From Fibrobacter sp. (GTDB taxonomy: Bacteria > Fibrobacterota > Fibrobacteria > Fibrobacterales > Fibrobacteraceae), in assembly GCA_024399065.1 (NCBI GenBank), contig JAKSIB010000017.1:464-64463 (forward strand): DNA of 64,000 bases, in the 5' to 3' direction. The notes under the pieces are model-generated. The model was not told the origin of the DNA and did no database searches. It was given only the letters and a program-made list of their open reading frames with translations. Shown piece by piece: positions 57,063 to 62,408 of this stretch. The position numbers and the translations under genes were made by a program. Each line of letters starts with the position of its first letter. The stretch's first letter is position 1.

Positions 57063-58226
57063 ATGAAAAAATTGTTTGGTTTGGCCCTCATCGGGCTGAT
57101 GGTCGGCACCGCCGGTGCTGCCTGTACTGTTGTTTCTGGATCAAATGGTTCTGACTCTACCTGTACTGAAGTTGTTACTAGAGCAGATACTATTAGCTAT
57201 GACTTTGGTGCTATCGTTGCTAATCGTGTTACGAATAAGATCGATACTCTTCATTCATCAAAGCATTGCGATGATTATTCGAATGGTTATGTGACTAAAA
57301 AGTGTAATAAGGATTGGGTTATTGCAGAAGGTGAAACGACTCACGGCCCTGATTCCGATGGAGGTTCTTTTGCCACCATTTATGGTGAAAAGTCTTCTTG
57401 CCCTGAAGATAATGCTGATTGTTACAAGAACTTGAATATCACTGAGAACGTTACCGTTTCAAATATTGACTTCAAGAGAACTTTTGTTCGCAATTCGAGC
57501 GACAATACTGTTGCTTCTACGGTAGTTTTTCCTTTTAGTTTCGCATCAAACTGTGTTAGTGGCGCAACGTTTTCTAAGCTTGAAACGATTTCTTACAACA
57601 AGAATGGCGACAATATCTGGCGTGCTCATGTAAAAATGGGGGAGAGTACTATTGAAGCGCATACCCCCTACATTGTAAAGGCAACAGGCAGTTCTTTGAC
57701 GTTCAAATCTTCTTGTAACTATAAGTTTGAACCGGGGTCTGCTAAGAATTATACCGTTAATTTAGATTATCATTCTTCAGTTGGTGAATCCTATTCTGGT
57801 TCTTGGAATTTTGTCGGTACCTATGATATGGTTCAGTGGGGAGAGGACAATTCTGAATTGGGTAAGGTTTATGGTTTTGCTGCTAATTCCAAGGGATCTG
57901 TTTCTGCCGGCCAGTTTGTAAAGGCTAGTGCAGGTGCAAGTGTTCCTGCAATGCGTGCTTATTTGAAGTATGTTCCTTCCATAAGCCTTCAAAAGGCTGC
58001 CTTTGGTGCTGTGTCTGCTCTTCCCGAAGAAGAACTTCCCACCTCCATTGAACTTGTTTTCGAAGATGGTGATAAGATCATGGCAATTGGTCAGTTGAAC
58101 ACCCGCACTGGTGAAATCTCTGTGGATGAAAATCTGTGGTTCGACATGAAGGGCCGCAAGCTGAACAAGAAGCCCTCCGTCAAGGGTACCTACTACAACA
58201 ACGGCCAAAAGGTCATCATCAAGTAA
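57063..58226 (+). CDS. secreted protein with conserved GASVP.MRAYL domain and CTD-like tail
   Basis: Signal peptide; tail WFDMKGRKLNKKPSVKGTYYNNGQKVIIK resembling T9SS-type CTDs. Confidence 0.85.
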   Translation: MKKLFGLALIGLMVGTAGAACTVVSGSNGSDSTCTEVVTRADTISYDFGAIVANRVTNKIDTLHSSKHCDDYSNGYVTKKCNKDWVIAEGETTHGPDSDGGSFATIYGEKSSCPEDNADCYKNLNITENVTVSNIDFKRTFVRNSSDNTVASTVVFPFSFASNCVSGATFSKLETISYNKNGDNIWRAHVKMGESTIEAHTPYIVKATGSSLTFKSSCNYKFEPGSAKNYTVNLDYHSSVGESYSGSWNFVGTYDMVQWGEDNSELGKVYGFAANSKGSVSAGQFVKASAGASVPAMRAYLKYVPSISLQKAAFGAVSALPEEELPTSIELVFEDGDKIMAIGQLNTRTGEISVDENLWFDMKGRKLNKKPSVKGTYYNNGQKVIIK

Positions 58227-58231
58227 GGAGT

Positions 58232-58393
58232 ATGAAAATGTTTAAGAAAGAATATGTCGCTCCGAAGATGGATATTGTTGATTTGAAGATGGAAGCCCCC
58301 CTGCTTGGCGCTTCTGACGGTCCCGAAGGCGTTACCGAATACGATGACGAATTCGGCTGCCTCTACAATCCCGAAATGGATCGCAAGGCTTAA
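58232..58393 (+). CDS. small peptide 1 with YxxPxM leader motif (putative RiPP-like precursor)
   Basis: MKMFKKEYVAPKMDIVDLKMEAPLLGASDGPEGVTEYDDEFGCLYNPEMDRKA; AAGGAG RBS 7 nt before ATG 58238; near-identical paralogue at 61347. Confidence 0.85.
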   Translation: MKMFKKEYVAPKMDIVDLKMEAPLLGASDGPEGVTEYDDEFGCLYNPEMDRKA

Positions 58394-58456
58394 TCGCTAG
58401 TCATAAAAATTTTACATAAAATCAGGGCGCATTTTACCTCAAAAAAGCGTGTTAAT

Positions 58457-58486
58457 AGAAGGCGGGCTTAAAAAGCCCGCCTTTCT
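58457..58486 (+). terminator. hairpin/terminator upstream of the Rpn-family gene
   Basis: AAGGCGGGCT-TAAAA-AGCCCGCCTT. Confidence 0.65.
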
Positions 58487-58507
58487 CTGTAACCGATAGG
58501 AGGTAAA

Positions 58508-59422
58508 ATGAATAGAGAACGATTTGCCTGGTTCCTTGGAGAACTGAAAGCAAAGAACGACAATGGCGAGGACATTGACGCCTTTGTCAAGCAGTATGAA
58601 AACGAAACCGTCTACATCTATAACGACGCTTGTCTTAGGAAGATTTTCGCAACCCAGGCGAATCTTCCTCTGACGACGGACCTGCTGAATGCGTCCCTGA
58701 ATCTCATCGGGTCTGACCGTATCATGGATCCCAGCCTTCGCAATCCCTTTATCCCTGGCGATTTGGGATACAGGTCAGTGGAGCCGGATATTGTCCTGAC
58801 GACTAACGGTGAGAATGGCGTCAAGGACAGAATCTCTATCGAGTTCCAGCATGAGGGTGGGGACCTTTACAAGGACCGCTTGGTGCTTTACGTGTCCCGT
58901 CACGAAAGCAACATGGTGAAGCCTGGCGAAGTTCCGAAACTGGACAACTTGCACATCATCAGTTTTCAGCTGTTCGACACGTTCCCGTGGGTTCATTCCA
59001 AAAATTACAGGCACACCATTAAGTTGATGAACCAGGATCACGATGTATTTTTCGACAAGCTGACTATCACCCTGGTGGAAGTCAAGAAGTTCCGTATCCG
59101 TGCCGCAGAGTTCGCTGGCGACTACAGTCGTATTGCTCAGTGGTTGCGCGCCATCGACGCCTTGAACGAAAACGCCGATTTCACGCCCTTCGCAAACGAT
59201 CCTGTTTTCAGGCTCTTGCAGCAGGAGGTGAAATTATGTAACTTTAGTTCAAGGTTTCTTCTGAAGGAGGCTATGGGTATGACAGATATGACTTTGGTGA
59301 AGTATAATGCTGCAAAGGAAAATTCCAAGCAGATTGCCCGCAACATGCTTGCGGAAGGAGCTTCAATTGAGTTTGTAGCAAAAACGACAAAGCTCACTGT
59401 AGAGGAAATCAAGGCTTTGTAG
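58508..59422 (+). CDS. Rpn-family (PD-(D/E)XK nuclease/transposase-like) protein
   Basis: PDIV...ISIEFQ, R...Y, IISF, EVKKF, QWL; C-terminal IARNMLAEGASIEFVAKTTKLTVEEI helix motif. Confidence 0.82.
   Translation: MNRERFAWFLGELKAKNDNGEDIDAFVKQYENETVYIYNDACLRKIFATQANLPLTTDLLNASLNLIGSDRIMDPSLRNPFIPGDLGYRSVEPDIVLTTNGENGVKDRISIEFQHEGGDLYKDRLVLYVSRHESNMVKPGEVPKLDNLHIISFQLFDTFPWVHSKNYRHTIKLMNQDHDVFFDKLTITLVEVKKFRIRAAEFAGDYSRIAQWLRAIDALNENADFTPFANDPVFRLLQQEVKLCNFSSRFLLKEAMGMTDMTLVKYNAAKENSKQIARNMLAEGASIEFVAKTTKLTVEEIKAL
59279..59422 (+). CDS. putative internally initiated 47-aa RpnS-like antitoxin (in frame within the Rpn gene)
   Basis: AAGGAGG at 59264-59270, 8 nt before in-frame ATG 59279. Confidence 0.55.
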   Translation: MTDMTLVKYNAAKENSKQIARNMLAEGASIEFVAKTTKLTVEEIKAL

Positions 59423-59504
59423 TTCCAAGACTTGCGAAAAAATCTTGCGCAATAAGGGCTACAAGTCCATCTCCGACAGAATTGCAAAGGAAGCTTTGAA
59501 ATGT

Positions 59505-59536
59505 AGAAAACACCGCTTTCGGGCGGTGTTTTTTCT
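59505..59536 (+). terminator. intrinsic terminator after the Rpn gene
   Basis: AAAACACCGCT-TTC-GGGCGGTGTTTT followed by further Ts. Confidence 0.8.
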
Positions 59537-59620
59537 ATAAAAAGTGACGGAAATCACTTTGACGAAAACTTACAAAAAACTATCTTTTGCATCGAAATTT
59601 TTATTAGGAATAGACAAAAC

Positions 59621-61339
59621 ATGAAAAAGATTTTTGCTCTTACCTTCGCTGCCGCCATGGCATGTGCAACAAGCGCCTTTGCCGATTGCGCAACTGGCGA
59701 ACATGGCGCCATTTCCATCCAGAATATTGATGGTGTCTGCACCGCTGTGATTTACGGTGATAAAGAATCTTCTGATGCTGCAGGAGATCCAACTCTTTAT
59801 ACAAAACTTAAAGAGTTTGAAGCATCTGTAAACAAGGTTGTTTACAAGAGATCTGGTATTGGTAAAAAACATCAGACAGTCGTTCTTCCTTTTTCCGCTT
59901 CGATTGGTGACTCTAAATGTTCTTTGACTGGCGCTAAATTTTACGCCATTGGAAAAAACGCAAGTGATAAGGAACCCTTCGTTGACAAGAATACAAGTGG
60001 TAAATGGATTGTACGCACTGGCAATAATCCTTTGAGTGAATTGGATGCTCATACTCCGTATATTGTTGTCTTTGAATCAAATCCCGCAGAATTTACAATT
60101 ACCTGTCCTAATGCCATAAATATCAATACCAAAGCCTCTGCTCTGACCTTAAGTAAGGAAAACTGGGATTTTGTTGGCACTTATAGCGGAGAATCTTGGC
60201 CCGACGGTAATCGAAATATCTATGGTATGGCCGGTAAGGCAAAGGACTATACGTTCAATGTCAATGGCAAAGACTCTACAGTAAACGTTAATATTGGCGA
60301 TTTCGTAAGGGCTGGTGCTGGCGCAAGTGTTCCGCCGATGAAAGCTTACCTTCGTTACGTTGGTTCTAGGGCTTTGTCTAAGGCTATTGCTAGTTCTGAA
60401 CTTGACGATAATTCTCCGGAAAATACTCCCGAATTGATATCTGTAAAGATTCCCTTCCGTGAAGAAGCTTGCTTCTTGGAAGGTGATGAAATCATTGAAT
60501 TCAAGACTGTGAACGGCAAGAAAACCGCTTGTATCGATGGCCAGTCTGAAGCTCGCTTGCAGACGCTCAGCATTCCTGAAGATGTTGAAGTTGACTCCGT
60601 TGTGTATAATAGAAAGTTTAAACAAAATGTCCTTTCTACAGTAATGTTCCCCTTTGGTGGTGAAATTCATGGTGTTTTTTATGGAGCTGAATTCTTTAGA
60701 ATTGCTGATGTTCAGTATGTGGACTGGGCGGGGGGATGGACTGTTCTTGCTTGGCAGGTGGGTGAAAAAGCTGATGGAATTTTAATTGCGAATACCCCTT
60801 ATATAATCAATCCGTATGAGGCTTCACAGCTTATTGATGGTGAGTATCTTCCGTTTTGTGTAGGTATTGCTAATTCCTGTGCAACATTGAATACAACAAC
60901 GGGAAATAAGACTACGACAATAGGATCATGGTCCCTGCGCGGTACTTATGAAAAACTGGAATACGGAAAAGCCCCGTTTGCGGGTAGTGCCTATGGATTT
61001 GCTGTAGAGGGAAATTCAAGTGGTGTTACAGCTGGTAAATTTGTAAAAGCAAAAACTGGTGCGAGTGTTCCTCCAATGCGTGCGTATTTGAAGTATGTTG
61101 GACCCGCTCTGAAAACTATGGCAAATGCTTCCATTGAAGAAGATTTGCCTGAGTCTCTCCGTCTGATGCTTCTGGATAGCGACGGCAATACTATGGGCAT
61201 CGGCCGTATAAATACCGTCACTGGCGAAATCAAGATGGATGACAATGTTTGGTTCGACATGAAGGGTCGCAAGATGAACCACAAGCCCACCGTCAAGGGC
61301 ACCTACTACAACAAGGGTCAAAAGGTTATTATTAAGTAA
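59621..61339 (+). CDS. secreted protein with two GASVPPM.AYL domains and CTD-like tail
   Basis: Signal peptide; tandem internal duplication; tail WFDMKGRKMNHKPTVKGTYYNKGQKVIIK. Confidence 0.85.
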   Translation: MKKIFALTFAAAMACATSAFADCATGEHGAISIQNIDGVCTAVIYGDKESSDAAGDPTLYTKLKEFEASVNKVVYKRSGIGKKHQTVVLPFSASIGDSKCSLTGAKFYAIGKNASDKEPFVDKNTSGKWIVRTGNNPLSELDAHTPYIVVFESNPAEFTITCPNAININTKASALTLSKENWDFVGTYSGESWPDGNRNIYGMAGKAKDYTFNVNGKDSTVNVNIGDFVRAGAGASVPPMKAYLRYVGSRALSKAIASSELDDNSPENTPELISVKIPFREEACFLEGDEIIEFKTVNGKKTACIDGQSEARLQTLSIPEDVEVDSVVYNRKFKQNVLSTVMFPFGGEIHGVFYGAEFFRIADVQYVDWAGGWTVLAWQVGEKADGILIANTPYIINPYEASQLIDGEYLPFCVGIANSCATLNTTTGNKTTTIGSWSLRGTYEKLEYGKAPFAGSAYGFAVEGNSSGVTAGKFVKAKTGASVPPMRAYLKYVGPALKTMANASIEEDLPESLRLMLLDSDGNTMGIGRINTVTGEIKMDDNVWFDMKGRKMNHKPTVKGTYYNKGQKVIIK

Positions 61340-61346
61340 GGGGACT

Positions 61347-61508
61347 ATGAAAATGATTAAGAAAGAATACGAAGCTCCGAAGATGGACATTGTTGATTTG
61401 AAGATGGAAGCTCCCTTGCTTGGCGCTTCTGACGGTCCCGAAGGCGTTACCGAATACGATGACGAATTCGGCTGCAACTACAATCCGGAAATGGATCGTA
61501 AGGCATAA
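61347..61508 (+). CDS. small peptide 2 with YxxPxM leader motif (not in ORF track)
   Basis: MKMIKKEYEAPKMDIVDLKMEAPLLGASDGPEGVTEYDDEFGCNYNPEMDRKA; AAGGGGA RBS 8 nt before ATG 61353; 3 substitutions versus peptide 1. Confidence 0.85.
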   Translation: MKMIKKEYEAPKMDIVDLKMEAPLLGASDGPEGVTEYDDEFGCNYNPEMDRKA

Positions 61509-61517
61509 TAAAACTGG

Positions 61518-62408
61518 ATGAGTAGTTCTCTGTACAAAGTTGCGGGTCACGTTTTCTCGATCGCATTCGAGAACGAGGCTCTGGCTGCGGAAATGCTTCC
61601 GCTGATGGGGAACTACATGCCGTTTCAGGTGGAGGCTGGCGCTGGCCTTGACCATACATTCGATTTGAAGGTCGTCGCAGATGCACTGGGCTCTGCAGGC
61701 GGCCTTTTTGATTACGTGGTGGAGACCAGTCAGGAAGACGAAGGTCAGACCATCGTTTGCGGGCACACTTTCGACGGCAAGGCTGTTTTCGATTTCAAGT
61801 TCGGCGACAAGCCTGCGGGCCTGCTGATCTGCTCCAATGAATACCGCCAGGCGGAACTTCACTTGTGCGCAACCTTCCGCAAGGCTGGCCTGGATAACGC
61901 CCTGATGGTGCTTTACGCCTTGGCTACGGCCCGTTTGAATACGGTGCTGTTCCATGCCGCGGTGGTGAGCAAGGATGGCAAAGGCTACATGTTCCTGGGC
62001 AAGAGCGGTACCGGCAAGAGTACCCACGCACGCCTATGGCTCAACAACATCGCCGAAACGGAACTGGTAAACGACGACAATCCTGTGGTCCGTATGCAGC
62101 CCGATGGCGCCTGGGTTTACGGCTCTCCCTGGAGCGGAAAGACTCCCTGCTACAAGGATTTGGCAATGCCGCTGGGCGGTGTGGTTTTGCTGAGTCAGGC
62201 TCCCCACAACAAGATTGCCCGCCTGGGTGGCTTGCAGGCTTATGCTGCCATCGTCCCCAGCATTTCCGGCAAGCGCTGGGACGCTTCCATTGCCGACGGC
62301 CTTCACGATACGGAAAACAAGATGGCTCAGACCGTTCCTACCTATTACCTGGAATGTCTGCCCGACGCCGCTGCCGCTGAACTCTGCTGCAAGACCGTCA
62401 AGGCTTAA
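61518..62408 (+). CDS. HprK-related P-loop kinase
   Basis: LFHAAVV, FLGKSGTGKST Walker A, NDD, VYGSPWSGK. Confidence 0.8.
   Translation: MSSSLYKVAGHVFSIAFENEALAAEMLPLMGNYMPFQVEAGAGLDHTFDLKVVADALGSAGGLFDYVVETSQEDEGQTIVCGHTFDGKAVFDFKFGDKPAGLLICSNEYRQAELHLCATFRKAGLDNALMVLYALATARLNTVLFHAAVVSKDGKGYMFLGKSGTGKSTHARLWLNNIAETELVNDDNPVVRMQPDGAWVYGSPWSGKTPCYKDLAMPLGGVVLLSQAPHNKIARLGGLQAYAAIVPSISGKRWDASIADGLHDTENKMAQTVPTYYLECLPDAAAAELCCKTVKA

Follow-up and report, generated by a model that had tools for sequence, protein, structure and literature searches.

Two cargo–peptide cassettes and a kinase gene

The stretch of DNA described here (64,000 nucleotides of a Fibrobacter sp. genome, NCBI GenBank assembly GCA_024399065.1, contig JAKSIB010000017.1, positions 464 to 64,463 of the forward strand; hereafter the window) contains two near-identical open reading frames (ORFs) of 53 codons, each lying directly behind the gene of a secreted protein, and a P-loop kinase-like ORF that begins 9 nt past the second of them (Table 1). 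These micro-ORFs, the secreted proteins in front of them (the cargos), the kinase, and further machinery encoded elsewhere in the same genome form the system in question. The two peptides are identical at 50 of 53 residues, the differences being F/I, V/E, and L/N, and each ORF starts 6–8 nt 3′ of the secreted-protein stop. A GGAG/GGGGA box is located 1–3 nt 5′ of the first ATG and 7–9 nt 5′ of the second ATG in both peptides, and the spacing of this Shine–Dalgarno-like box makes the second ATG the likelier start. Peptide 1 is composed of the leader (MK)MFKKEYVAPKMDIVDLKMEAPLL, the junction GAS, and the acidic core DGPEGVTEYDDEFGCLYNPEMDRKA. A preliminary description of this DNA had reported the two ORFs with their three differences behind secreted-protein stops, favored the second ATG, and listed the motifs of the kinase; all of this was re-derived, and its statement that the window holds no peptidase, cyclase, or recognition element (RRE) of the kind used for peptides that are made by ribosomes and modified after translation (RiPPs) is correct.

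Table 1. Features of the window and related genes elsewhere in the source genome (positions refer to the window unless a contig is named; HMM, hidden Markov model)
Feature	Position	Strand	Size and evidence
Cargo 1, secreted protein	57063..58226	+	387 aa; ORF with signal peptide; module HMM 309 bits
Precursor peptide 1	58232..58393, likely start 58238	+	53 codons; leader HMM 43.8 bits
Intrinsic-terminator-like hairpin and U-rich tract	58456..58489	+	RNA folding
Cargo 2, secreted protein	59621..61339	+	572 aa; ORF; two beta-sandwich copies and basic tail
Precursor peptide 2	61347..61508, likely start 61353	+	53 codons; leader HMM 43.9 bits
ScmC/HprK-like P-loop kinase (LppK-like)	61518..62408	+	296 aa; family matches and P-loop motifs
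Rpn / PD-(D/E)XK_2 'transposase-like' nuclease	58508-59422	+	304 aa; PF12784, 79 bits
Ser/His signal-peptidase-like protease	contig C78:2836-3282		148 aa; TIGR02228 27.6 bits (cut-off 51.85)
PqqD/RRE protein	contig C78:3286-3555		PF05402 50.4 bits, above cut-off
ABC exporter, MsbA/CydCD-like	contig C78:3552-5174		540 aa; MsbA_rel 200 bits
PF14907 nucleotidyltransferases, two unlinked copies	contigs C56 and C117		

When the peptide ORFs are compared with each other and with their orthologues from a second Fibrobacter (L008), the ratio of nonsynonymous to synonymous substitution rates (dN/dS) is 0.08–0.17 (for peptide 1, 0.12 both against peptide 2 and against the L008 orthologue), so the peptide frames are under purifying selection. 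The two cassettes are alike only over the last ~150 nt of the cargo gene and the peptide: the last 150 nt of cargo 2 are 79% identical to those of cargo 1, versus about 31% farther upstream. The three variable peptide residues occur in shuffled combinations in the source genome and L008, a sign that the 3′ block may have undergone recombination or gene conversion. The hairpin located 3′ of peptide 1 (−24.8 kcal/mol, z −4.62, equally stable shuffles 0/200), which a simple consensus terminator scan missed and direct folding revealed, would close the transcription unit of cargo 1 and peptide 1. The nuclease gene lies between both cassettes.

The peptide family and the proteins that precede it

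The window peptides belong to a family, collected by tblastn and a motif scan and then with an HMM of the first 26 residues, that has the pattern KKxYxxPxhxhhxh......LLxxS in fixed spacing, followed by a variable tail. The leader HMM has exactly nine matches in the 3.8-Mb genome (25.8–45.6 bits), the next match scoring 10.5 bits, and this wide score gap together with the low dN/dS makes the peptide ORFs more than chance. Among 26 peptides from Fibrobacter, Prevotella, Bacteroidaceae, and Proteiniphilum, the Pro is invariant, and the two Lys, the Tyr, and the Ser, which stands 20 residues past the Tyr, are conserved in at least 90%. The tail, or core, carries a net negative charge in 43 of the 45 members sampled (mean charge −4.2). 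A lipobox reading of LLxxS was rejected, as Cys is not conserved. A PDB sequence search with the leader profile gave nothing meaningful, and neither the peptides nor the cargo tails have an NCBIfam or Pfam match. It could be argued from the shortness of the ORFs, from the lack of a curated family match, and from the near absence of the peptides from databases (three matches) that the frames arose by chance where a 3′ untranslated region or a terminator is conserved. We regard this as exceedingly improbable, given a leader conserved at the protein level across phyla while the DNA varies, the dN/dS values, the ribosome-binding sites, and frames that stay open in more than 150 listed copies with one internal stop noted.

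The segment Y(D/C)DE(L/F)G is common to many cores (L090–L109, L019, L022, L027, and window 58313–58390). Some peptides end exactly at its Gly (..YCDELG, then the stop codon), and others run ~12 residues past it (LAPTHNDDRLA, CLYNPEMDRKA, FNLNKGTDRHA), a difference that may point to a follower segment or to processing at a second site. The ninth member of the genome, MSTQQKKPYTPPSMKVIEFDFTTSLLACSSNDNPYWNGCWEESEEGYWKGND, at contig C29:10787-11035 (−), has no cargo gene upstream; ~1 kb from it lies an ORF of 367 aa that ends in a zinc-ribbon-like CxxC...RDxNAAxN pattern and may encode a TnpB-type transposon protein.

The cargos share a C-terminal module (in cargo 1, window 57534–58223) in which a beta-sandwich of ~150 aa (..ANTPY..WxFxGTY..YGF..GxFVK..PMRAYLxY) is joined through a linker to a basic tail (WFDMKGRKLNKKPSVKGTYYNNGQKVIIK in cargo 1), and both window cargos end in ..WFDMKGRK(L/M)N.KP.VKGTYYN.GQKVIIK. 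Cargo 2 has two module HMM matches (C31:60447-60926, 93 bits, and C31:61116-61799, 270 bits). An HMM of the last 45 residues and an HMM of the preceding 185 residues recover the same six proteins in the genome, the latter with one weak extra match (27.6 bits). Behind each of the six module-bearing proteins stand one or two peptides and, reciprocally, eight of the nine genome peptides lie directly behind a large secreted protein, in every case a module-bearing one. By contrast, TIGR04183, the ordinary tail of the type IX secretion system (T9SS), has 64 matches in the genome, of which none belongs to the six cargos and none has a peptide behind it (0/64 for each). Outside the source genome, 17 of 23 proteins with a Fibrobacter-type tail have a leader match within 450 nt downstream, and most other peptide matches come after cargos with a diverged tail. 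The peptide starts range from 49 nt past the cargo stop to 4 nt before it, where the frames overlap. The N-terminal regions of the cargos bear adhesin-type repeats (BspA leucine-rich repeats, Listeria-Bacteroides repeat, beta-helix), and their tails carry a charge of +5 to +7.

The cargos resemble T9SS type A C-terminal domain (CTD) cargo (TIGR04183, PMC6851124) in that they are large proteins, secreted or on the surface, whose C-terminal tail is basic and rich in beta structure, with the common pattern ..D.xGRxh......GxYxxxxxxKhhhK. However, the six cargos and 29 relatives have no TIGR04183 match (0/29 for cargo tails from several taxa, at E ≤ 0.01); the cargo tail is always preceded by the ~150-aa 'RAYL' beta-sandwich, which has no PDB fold match; and a related cargo occurs in a Clostridia-labelled locus (L071), where a T9SS is not expected. 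The AlphaFold2 model of the conserved C-terminal 230 cargo residues (mean pLDDT, a per-residue confidence score, 79.7) combines a beta-sandwich with a helix and a small beta domain, and a Foldseek search of the module model against the PDB returned neither a fold match nor a T9SS CTD. The leader peptide of L071 lies directly past a 571-aa protein with a ..PFRAYIY.. motif. Since this Clostridia-labelled locus shows the coupling, cargo coupling may not need a T9SS, with the proviso that the contigs could be mis-binned. The source genome itself encodes the T9SS translocon SprA (1106 bits; contig C78:6199-8232) and dozens of ordinary tails, which accords with the role of T9SS signal proposed for the Fibrobacter 'basic terminal domain' (PMC6851124). 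One such ordinary T9SS-type tail, on a GH43-like protein, reads ..FDLNGVMARKG..GTYLVRAGGRVIKVR.

On contig C24, the peptides at 92185-92310 and 98613-98771 were set against the cargos at C24:89625-92039 and C24:94276-98637. Here a cargo has two peptides behind it, one of them of the 'second type'. The end of one 'second-type' peptide resembles the first beta-strand of the tail domain of its cargo (DDLPETLNVIIR versus DELPESMDVVIR, with 0/2000 shuffles as good; the near-copy is also given as DDLPETLNVIIR followed by the stop, versus DELPESMDVVIRG), and that of the other, LPDRMGVVVDD before the stop, resembles PNYLDVVVDD of its cargo (p 0.0075). These strand copies match the cognate cargo best, and could reflect strand mimicry or complementation, or local duplication. 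The cores of the window show no such mimicry (p 0.86), which is restricted to the second-type peptides on contig C24.

Biosynthetic machinery and its inheritance

The remaining machinery is encoded on other contigs (Table 1). PF05402 has a single match in the genome, the PqqD on contig C78, whose gene is directly 3′ of that of the peptidase and whose best solved relative is the lasso RRE TfuB1. The ABC exporter has no peptidase (C39) domain, and a GG-type or C39-processed bacteriocin was rejected on this ground. The gene order kinase–peptidase–PqqD–ABC is near-universal in 83 loci taken from Prevotella, Bacteroidaceae, other Fibrobacter, and two Clostridia; a PF14907 nucleotidyltransferase adjoins the operon in 22 of them (NTP_transf_5 scores 146.7 bits for an operon-adjacent homologue), and no further gene is conserved across the neighborhoods. 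The full operon is present in L071 (labelled Subdoligranulum) and L075 (labelled Vescimonas), at 44% kinase identity. Most other genomes have the cassettes no more than 10 kb away from the full operon; in the clade of the source genome, the kinase remained beside the cargo–peptide cassettes and peptidase–PqqD–ABC relocated.

The motifs GKSGTGKST (Walker A, residues 161–169), NDD (185–187), and GSPWSGK (202–208) of the window kinase are invariant in 23 homologues. The gene is single-copy in the genome, homologues in Prevotella and Bacteroidaceae are 55–59% identical to it, and the family is very large, with at least 7,987 matches at E ≤ 0.001 among 8,000 scored candidates. The best family match of the kinase is ScmC of the SynChlorMet cassette (TIGR04249, 33 bits; precomputed Pfam label PF27840 'ScmC'), with HprK_rel_A and HprK_rel_B at about 20 bits, all under cut-off. 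ScmC, too, has a PqqD homologue as its partner, in a cassette presumed to modify peptides, but the score of the window kinase is far under the ScmC cut-off of 125 bits, and no radical SAM/SPASM partner is conserved near the kinase loci. A radical-SAM (SCM-type) cassette was rejected, as no such gene is conserved in the 83 neighborhoods. With HPr kinase/phosphorylase, only the P-loop region aligns (TIGR00679, 14.4 bits against a cut-off of 240; PF07475, 13 against 33.3), so that a full-length match is lacking, and a PDB sequence search with the kinase profile gave P-loop-level matches alone (ABC ATPases, PEPCK, HprK/P).

In a kinase tree (L007–L089 and the window), the Fibrobacter kinases are nested in those of Prevotella/Bacteroidaceae and are not monophyletic, and within Fibrobacterota the system is essentially limited to one genus. 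The tree and the one-genus distribution suggest inter-phylum transfer in the herbivore gut.

In a sample of 151 Fibrobacterota genomes from 54 genera, the kinase is present in 34, the leader peptides in 32 (1–10 copies each), the cargo module in 33, and the peptidase with PqqD in 33, and all four components occur together in the same 32 genomes. All four are missing from three congeneric genomes. One congener (G046:C3:34071-34677) keeps only a kinase fragment of 125 residues, interrupted by an in-frame TGA, and 47 residues of PqqD, and has neither peptides nor cargo module; the fragments look like a decayed remnant of the whole system. In another genus, all four components are present in the single positive genome and absent from its congeners. 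The components thus co-vary over several separate gains and losses. Beyond Fibrobacterota, four operon-bearing genomes (two Prevotella, Proteiniphilum, and a Clostridia-labelled metagenome-assembled genome) have 1–9 leader matches each. The kinase is found in 120 of 151 sampled species of Bacteroidaceae (the family of Prevotella sp. tf2-5), and Bacteroidaceae genomes with a detectable leader are kinase-positive in 31 of 31 cases against this background; the leader HMM is Fibrobacter-weighted and detects peptides in only 31 of the 120 kinase-positive genomes.

These profiles bear on the idea that the micro-proteins are unmodified small partners of the cargos, such as secretion chaperones or assembly factors, with the kinase beside peptide 2 being incidental. 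Such a role would suit ORFs that are probably translationally coupled to the cargo and complementary to it in charge, in a genome where just one of nine peptides adjoins the kinase. We nevertheless hold it to be quite improbable: the four components have one phylogenetic profile in common, with joint losses and a decayed remnant among its cases, the leader has the RRE-binding YxxPxh motif in a genome that encodes exactly one PqqD, and in most other genomes the cassettes accompany the full operon at close range.

The gene content also recalls certain lasso clusters. The paeninodin (pade) and pseudomycoidin (psm) clusters carry a kinase and a nucleotidyltransferase (PMC8498205), and the likeness extends to the putative HprK-type kinase, PF14907, the B1-type PqqD RRE, the D-type ABC exporter, and the [Y/W]xxPxh leader. 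On this basis the peptides might be true lasso precursors, with the cyclase and the B2 protease encoded elsewhere. This is very unlikely. Transglut_core3 (B2) has no match above 13 bits in the genome, Asn_synthase (the cyclase) has just two short PP-loop matches, in ORFs of 229 and 462 aa, and no cyclase or B2 gene is conserved in the 83 neighborhoods. In addition, the peptides have no Thr at −2, no consistent Asp/Glu at core position 7–9, and, unlike paeninodin, no C-terminal Ser, which is the phosphorylation site there. A canonical lasso pathway was rejected for want of B2 and cyclase in the genome, and the product must be linear.

A proposed pathway and its relation to the surface proteins

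The same gene set has been published from Bacillota as the lppAKBSDN clusters of linear polyphosphorylated peptides (LPP; Popov et al., Nat Commun, May 2026, PMC13381572), in the only paper that we found on polyphosphorylated RiPPs. The LPP core genes encode an SpI-like leader peptidase, LppS (catalytic set S29/H68/D93), the RRE LppB, the HprK-like kinase LppK, an NTP transferase (LppN), and an exporter similar to MsbA (LppD), without a cyclase (PMC13381572). The LPP precursors have a conserved leader, YxxPxVLxHQxIxFETxxS, and variable C-termini; in a heterologous host, LppK adds up to four phosphates to core Ser3, and LppS cleaves after T-1 only when the leader is presented by LppB (PMC13381572). 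LppN showed no activity, and neither the end product nor the role of LPP is yet established (PMC13381572). Its authors describe LPP as restricted to Bacillota and propose conflict-type dynamics with many gains and losses (PMC13381572).

The present system has the same core gene set: a putative HprK-like kinase, likened to LppK by description, a putative Ser/His leader peptidase resembling signal peptidase I of the archaeal type, a discrete PqqD/RRE, an MsbA-like exporter, and PF14907. Neither system has a macrolactam cyclase or B2, and both have one to several precursors with a YxxPxh leader and a conserved Ser ~18–20 residues past the Tyr. The peptidase is 31% identical to LppS over 74 residues by BLASTP (E 6e-8), with Ser32 aligned with S29, His70 with H68, and Asp85 with D87. 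The two systems differ in the leader, where ..LLxxS stands in place of HQxIxFETxxS (a different leader subfamily) and the Ser is 20 rather than 18 residues from the Tyr; in the cores, which are short and strongly acidic here and Gly/Asn/Lys-rich in LPP; in the placement of the precursor genes, which trail surface-protein genes here and lie in the operon or in capsule loci in LPP; in the kinase, which is split from the operon in the source genome; and in their hosts, the present system occurring in Fibrobacterota and Bacteroidota.

The preliminary description had proposed an undescribed, RiPP-like but non-lasso system with the peptides as substrates of the kinase. The RiPP-like, non-lasso reading is supported by peptidase–PqqD–ABC on contig C78, by the one-operon order in the 83 loci, and by the lack of B2 and cyclase. 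The company that it had envisaged for the peptides, namely PqqD, an S24/S26 peptidase, and a nucleotidyltransferase, exists in the genome, the kinase, peptidase with PqqD, peptides, and cargo module share a near-perfect phylogenetic profile, and the leader family is conserved across Fibrobacter, Prevotella, Bacteroidaceae, and Proteiniphilum. The word 'undescribed' is only partly right, because the LPP gene set was published in May 2026 (PMC13381572); the phyla, the leader subfamily, and the cargo coupling are new. The description had also pointed to Ser, Thr, and Tyr residues in the acidic core, from which the LPP precedent would shift the likely kinase target to the junction Ser of LLxxS (PMC13381572).

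We consider it probable, by analogy with LPP, that the micro-ORFs are precursors of a cyclase-less, lasso-derived, LPP-type RiPP pathway that is coupled to surface proteins. It would be an LPP variant and not a plain member, because the LPP leader motif is not matched and the system is known here from its genes. Several observations weigh against this assignment. The leader HMM scores just 3–4 bits on two published LPP precursors, and YxxPxVLxHQxIxFETxxS, including its FET cleavage motif, is missing from the present leaders. LppS D93 aligns with Gly91 of the peptidase, and the match of PqqD to LppB is weak (E 2e-4 over 38 residues). The kinase is under every curated family cut-off, its AlphaFold2 model (23 sequences) is poor in the P-loop half (pLDDT 26–56), and a Foldseek search with that model against the PDB gave nothing under E 0.26 and is uninformative. 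The source genome encodes kinase, peptidase operon, and nucleotidyltransferases at unlinked places, the C29 peptide is an orphan without cargo, and the co-occurrence counts are phylogenetically non-independent.

In the pathway that we propose from LPP and lasso biochemistry, one genome-wide machinery would serve nine precursors. The PqqD/RRE would bind the leader through YxxPxh as a beta-strand, and the window kinase would then phosphorylate the near-invariant Ser of the LLxxS junction, possibly several times. The soluble Ser/His protease would cut the leader off within or beside LLxxS, leaving the phospho-Ser within the first three residues of a 10–30-residue acidic core. The PF14907 nucleotidyltransferase may extend the phosphate, and the MsbA-like ABC exporter would carry the product across the inner membrane. 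The window peptides would yield a core from around G-A-S(P)n-DGPEGVTEYDDEFGC(L/N)YNPEMDRKA. Both the place of cleavage and the choice of Ser are assigned by analogy, because no HMM match extends beyond YxxPxh and the leaders have no FET motif. Each precursor gene would be transcribed, and probably translationally coupled, with the gene of its module-bearing surface protein, and because of this coupling the peptide is most likely made in step with its cargo and acts on or with it.

What the peptide does for its cargo is speculative. One possibility is that the polyanionic peptide binds to the very basic tail of the cargo. More fully, the mature (poly)phosphorylated peptide could be a dedicated, stoichiometric partner of its own surface protein and not a free natural product, binding the C-terminal module or serving as its attachment point after export, and thereby governing secretion, anchoring, or assembly. 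This partnership is possible but doubtful. It fits because the charges oppose each other, the acidic core and its phosphates against the basic tail, and because some second peptides copy the first tail strand of their own cargo, two features that fit a physical partnership without proving one; the more general idea of the preliminary description, that the peptides are partners of surface proteins, is strengthened by the coupling of 6/6 against 0/64.

A different view is that LPP-like machinery makes free exported products (a bacteriocin, microcin, or signal), with the position behind the cargos reflecting co-expression only. An ABC exporter with RiPP machinery is typical of exported natural products, conflict-type dynamics were suggested by the LPP authors (PMC13381572), the kinase tree suggests inter-phylum transfer, and one peptide is without cargo. 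The coupling, however, is too specific for this view (6/6 versus 0/64) and recurs in Prevotella, Bacteroidaceae, and one Clostridia locus; the cargo module has the phylogenetic profile of the machinery; and a genome holds 1–10 different precursors, every one paired with a cargo of its own. The neighborhoods show no conserved immunity gene, acidic cores are unusual for membrane-active antimicrobials, and some cores copy a strand of their own cargo. We judge free products to be unlikely, though not negligibly so.

Relative to the literature that was searched, the system is new in being very common in Fibrobacterota and Bacteroidota, in its distinct acidic precursor family, and in the one-to-one attachment of the precursor genes to a class of surface proteins with a module other than the T9SS tail. 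No paper was found that links PqqD with type IX secretion, and a paper on RiPP mining in Bacteroidales does not include the present system. The machinery is common in herbivore-gut Fibrobacter, where 32 of 36 sampled genomes of the genus have all four components, and the kinase alone is present in about 80% of sampled Bacteroidaceae species, including major gut and rumen genera. Its substrates would be a large, unannotated family of acidic micro-peptides, tied cassette by cassette to surface proteins with adhesin repeats and encoded by ~50-codon genes of a kind that annotation pipelines routinely overlook. The cargo module would be an unrecognized C-terminal sorting or partner module, distinct from the known T9SS tails, and the cargo coupling is a first testable handle on the role of LPP-type peptides. 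If the partnership of peptide and surface protein is true, the peptide would be a RiPP that serves to make a protein complete, and the LPP family would have its first biological role.

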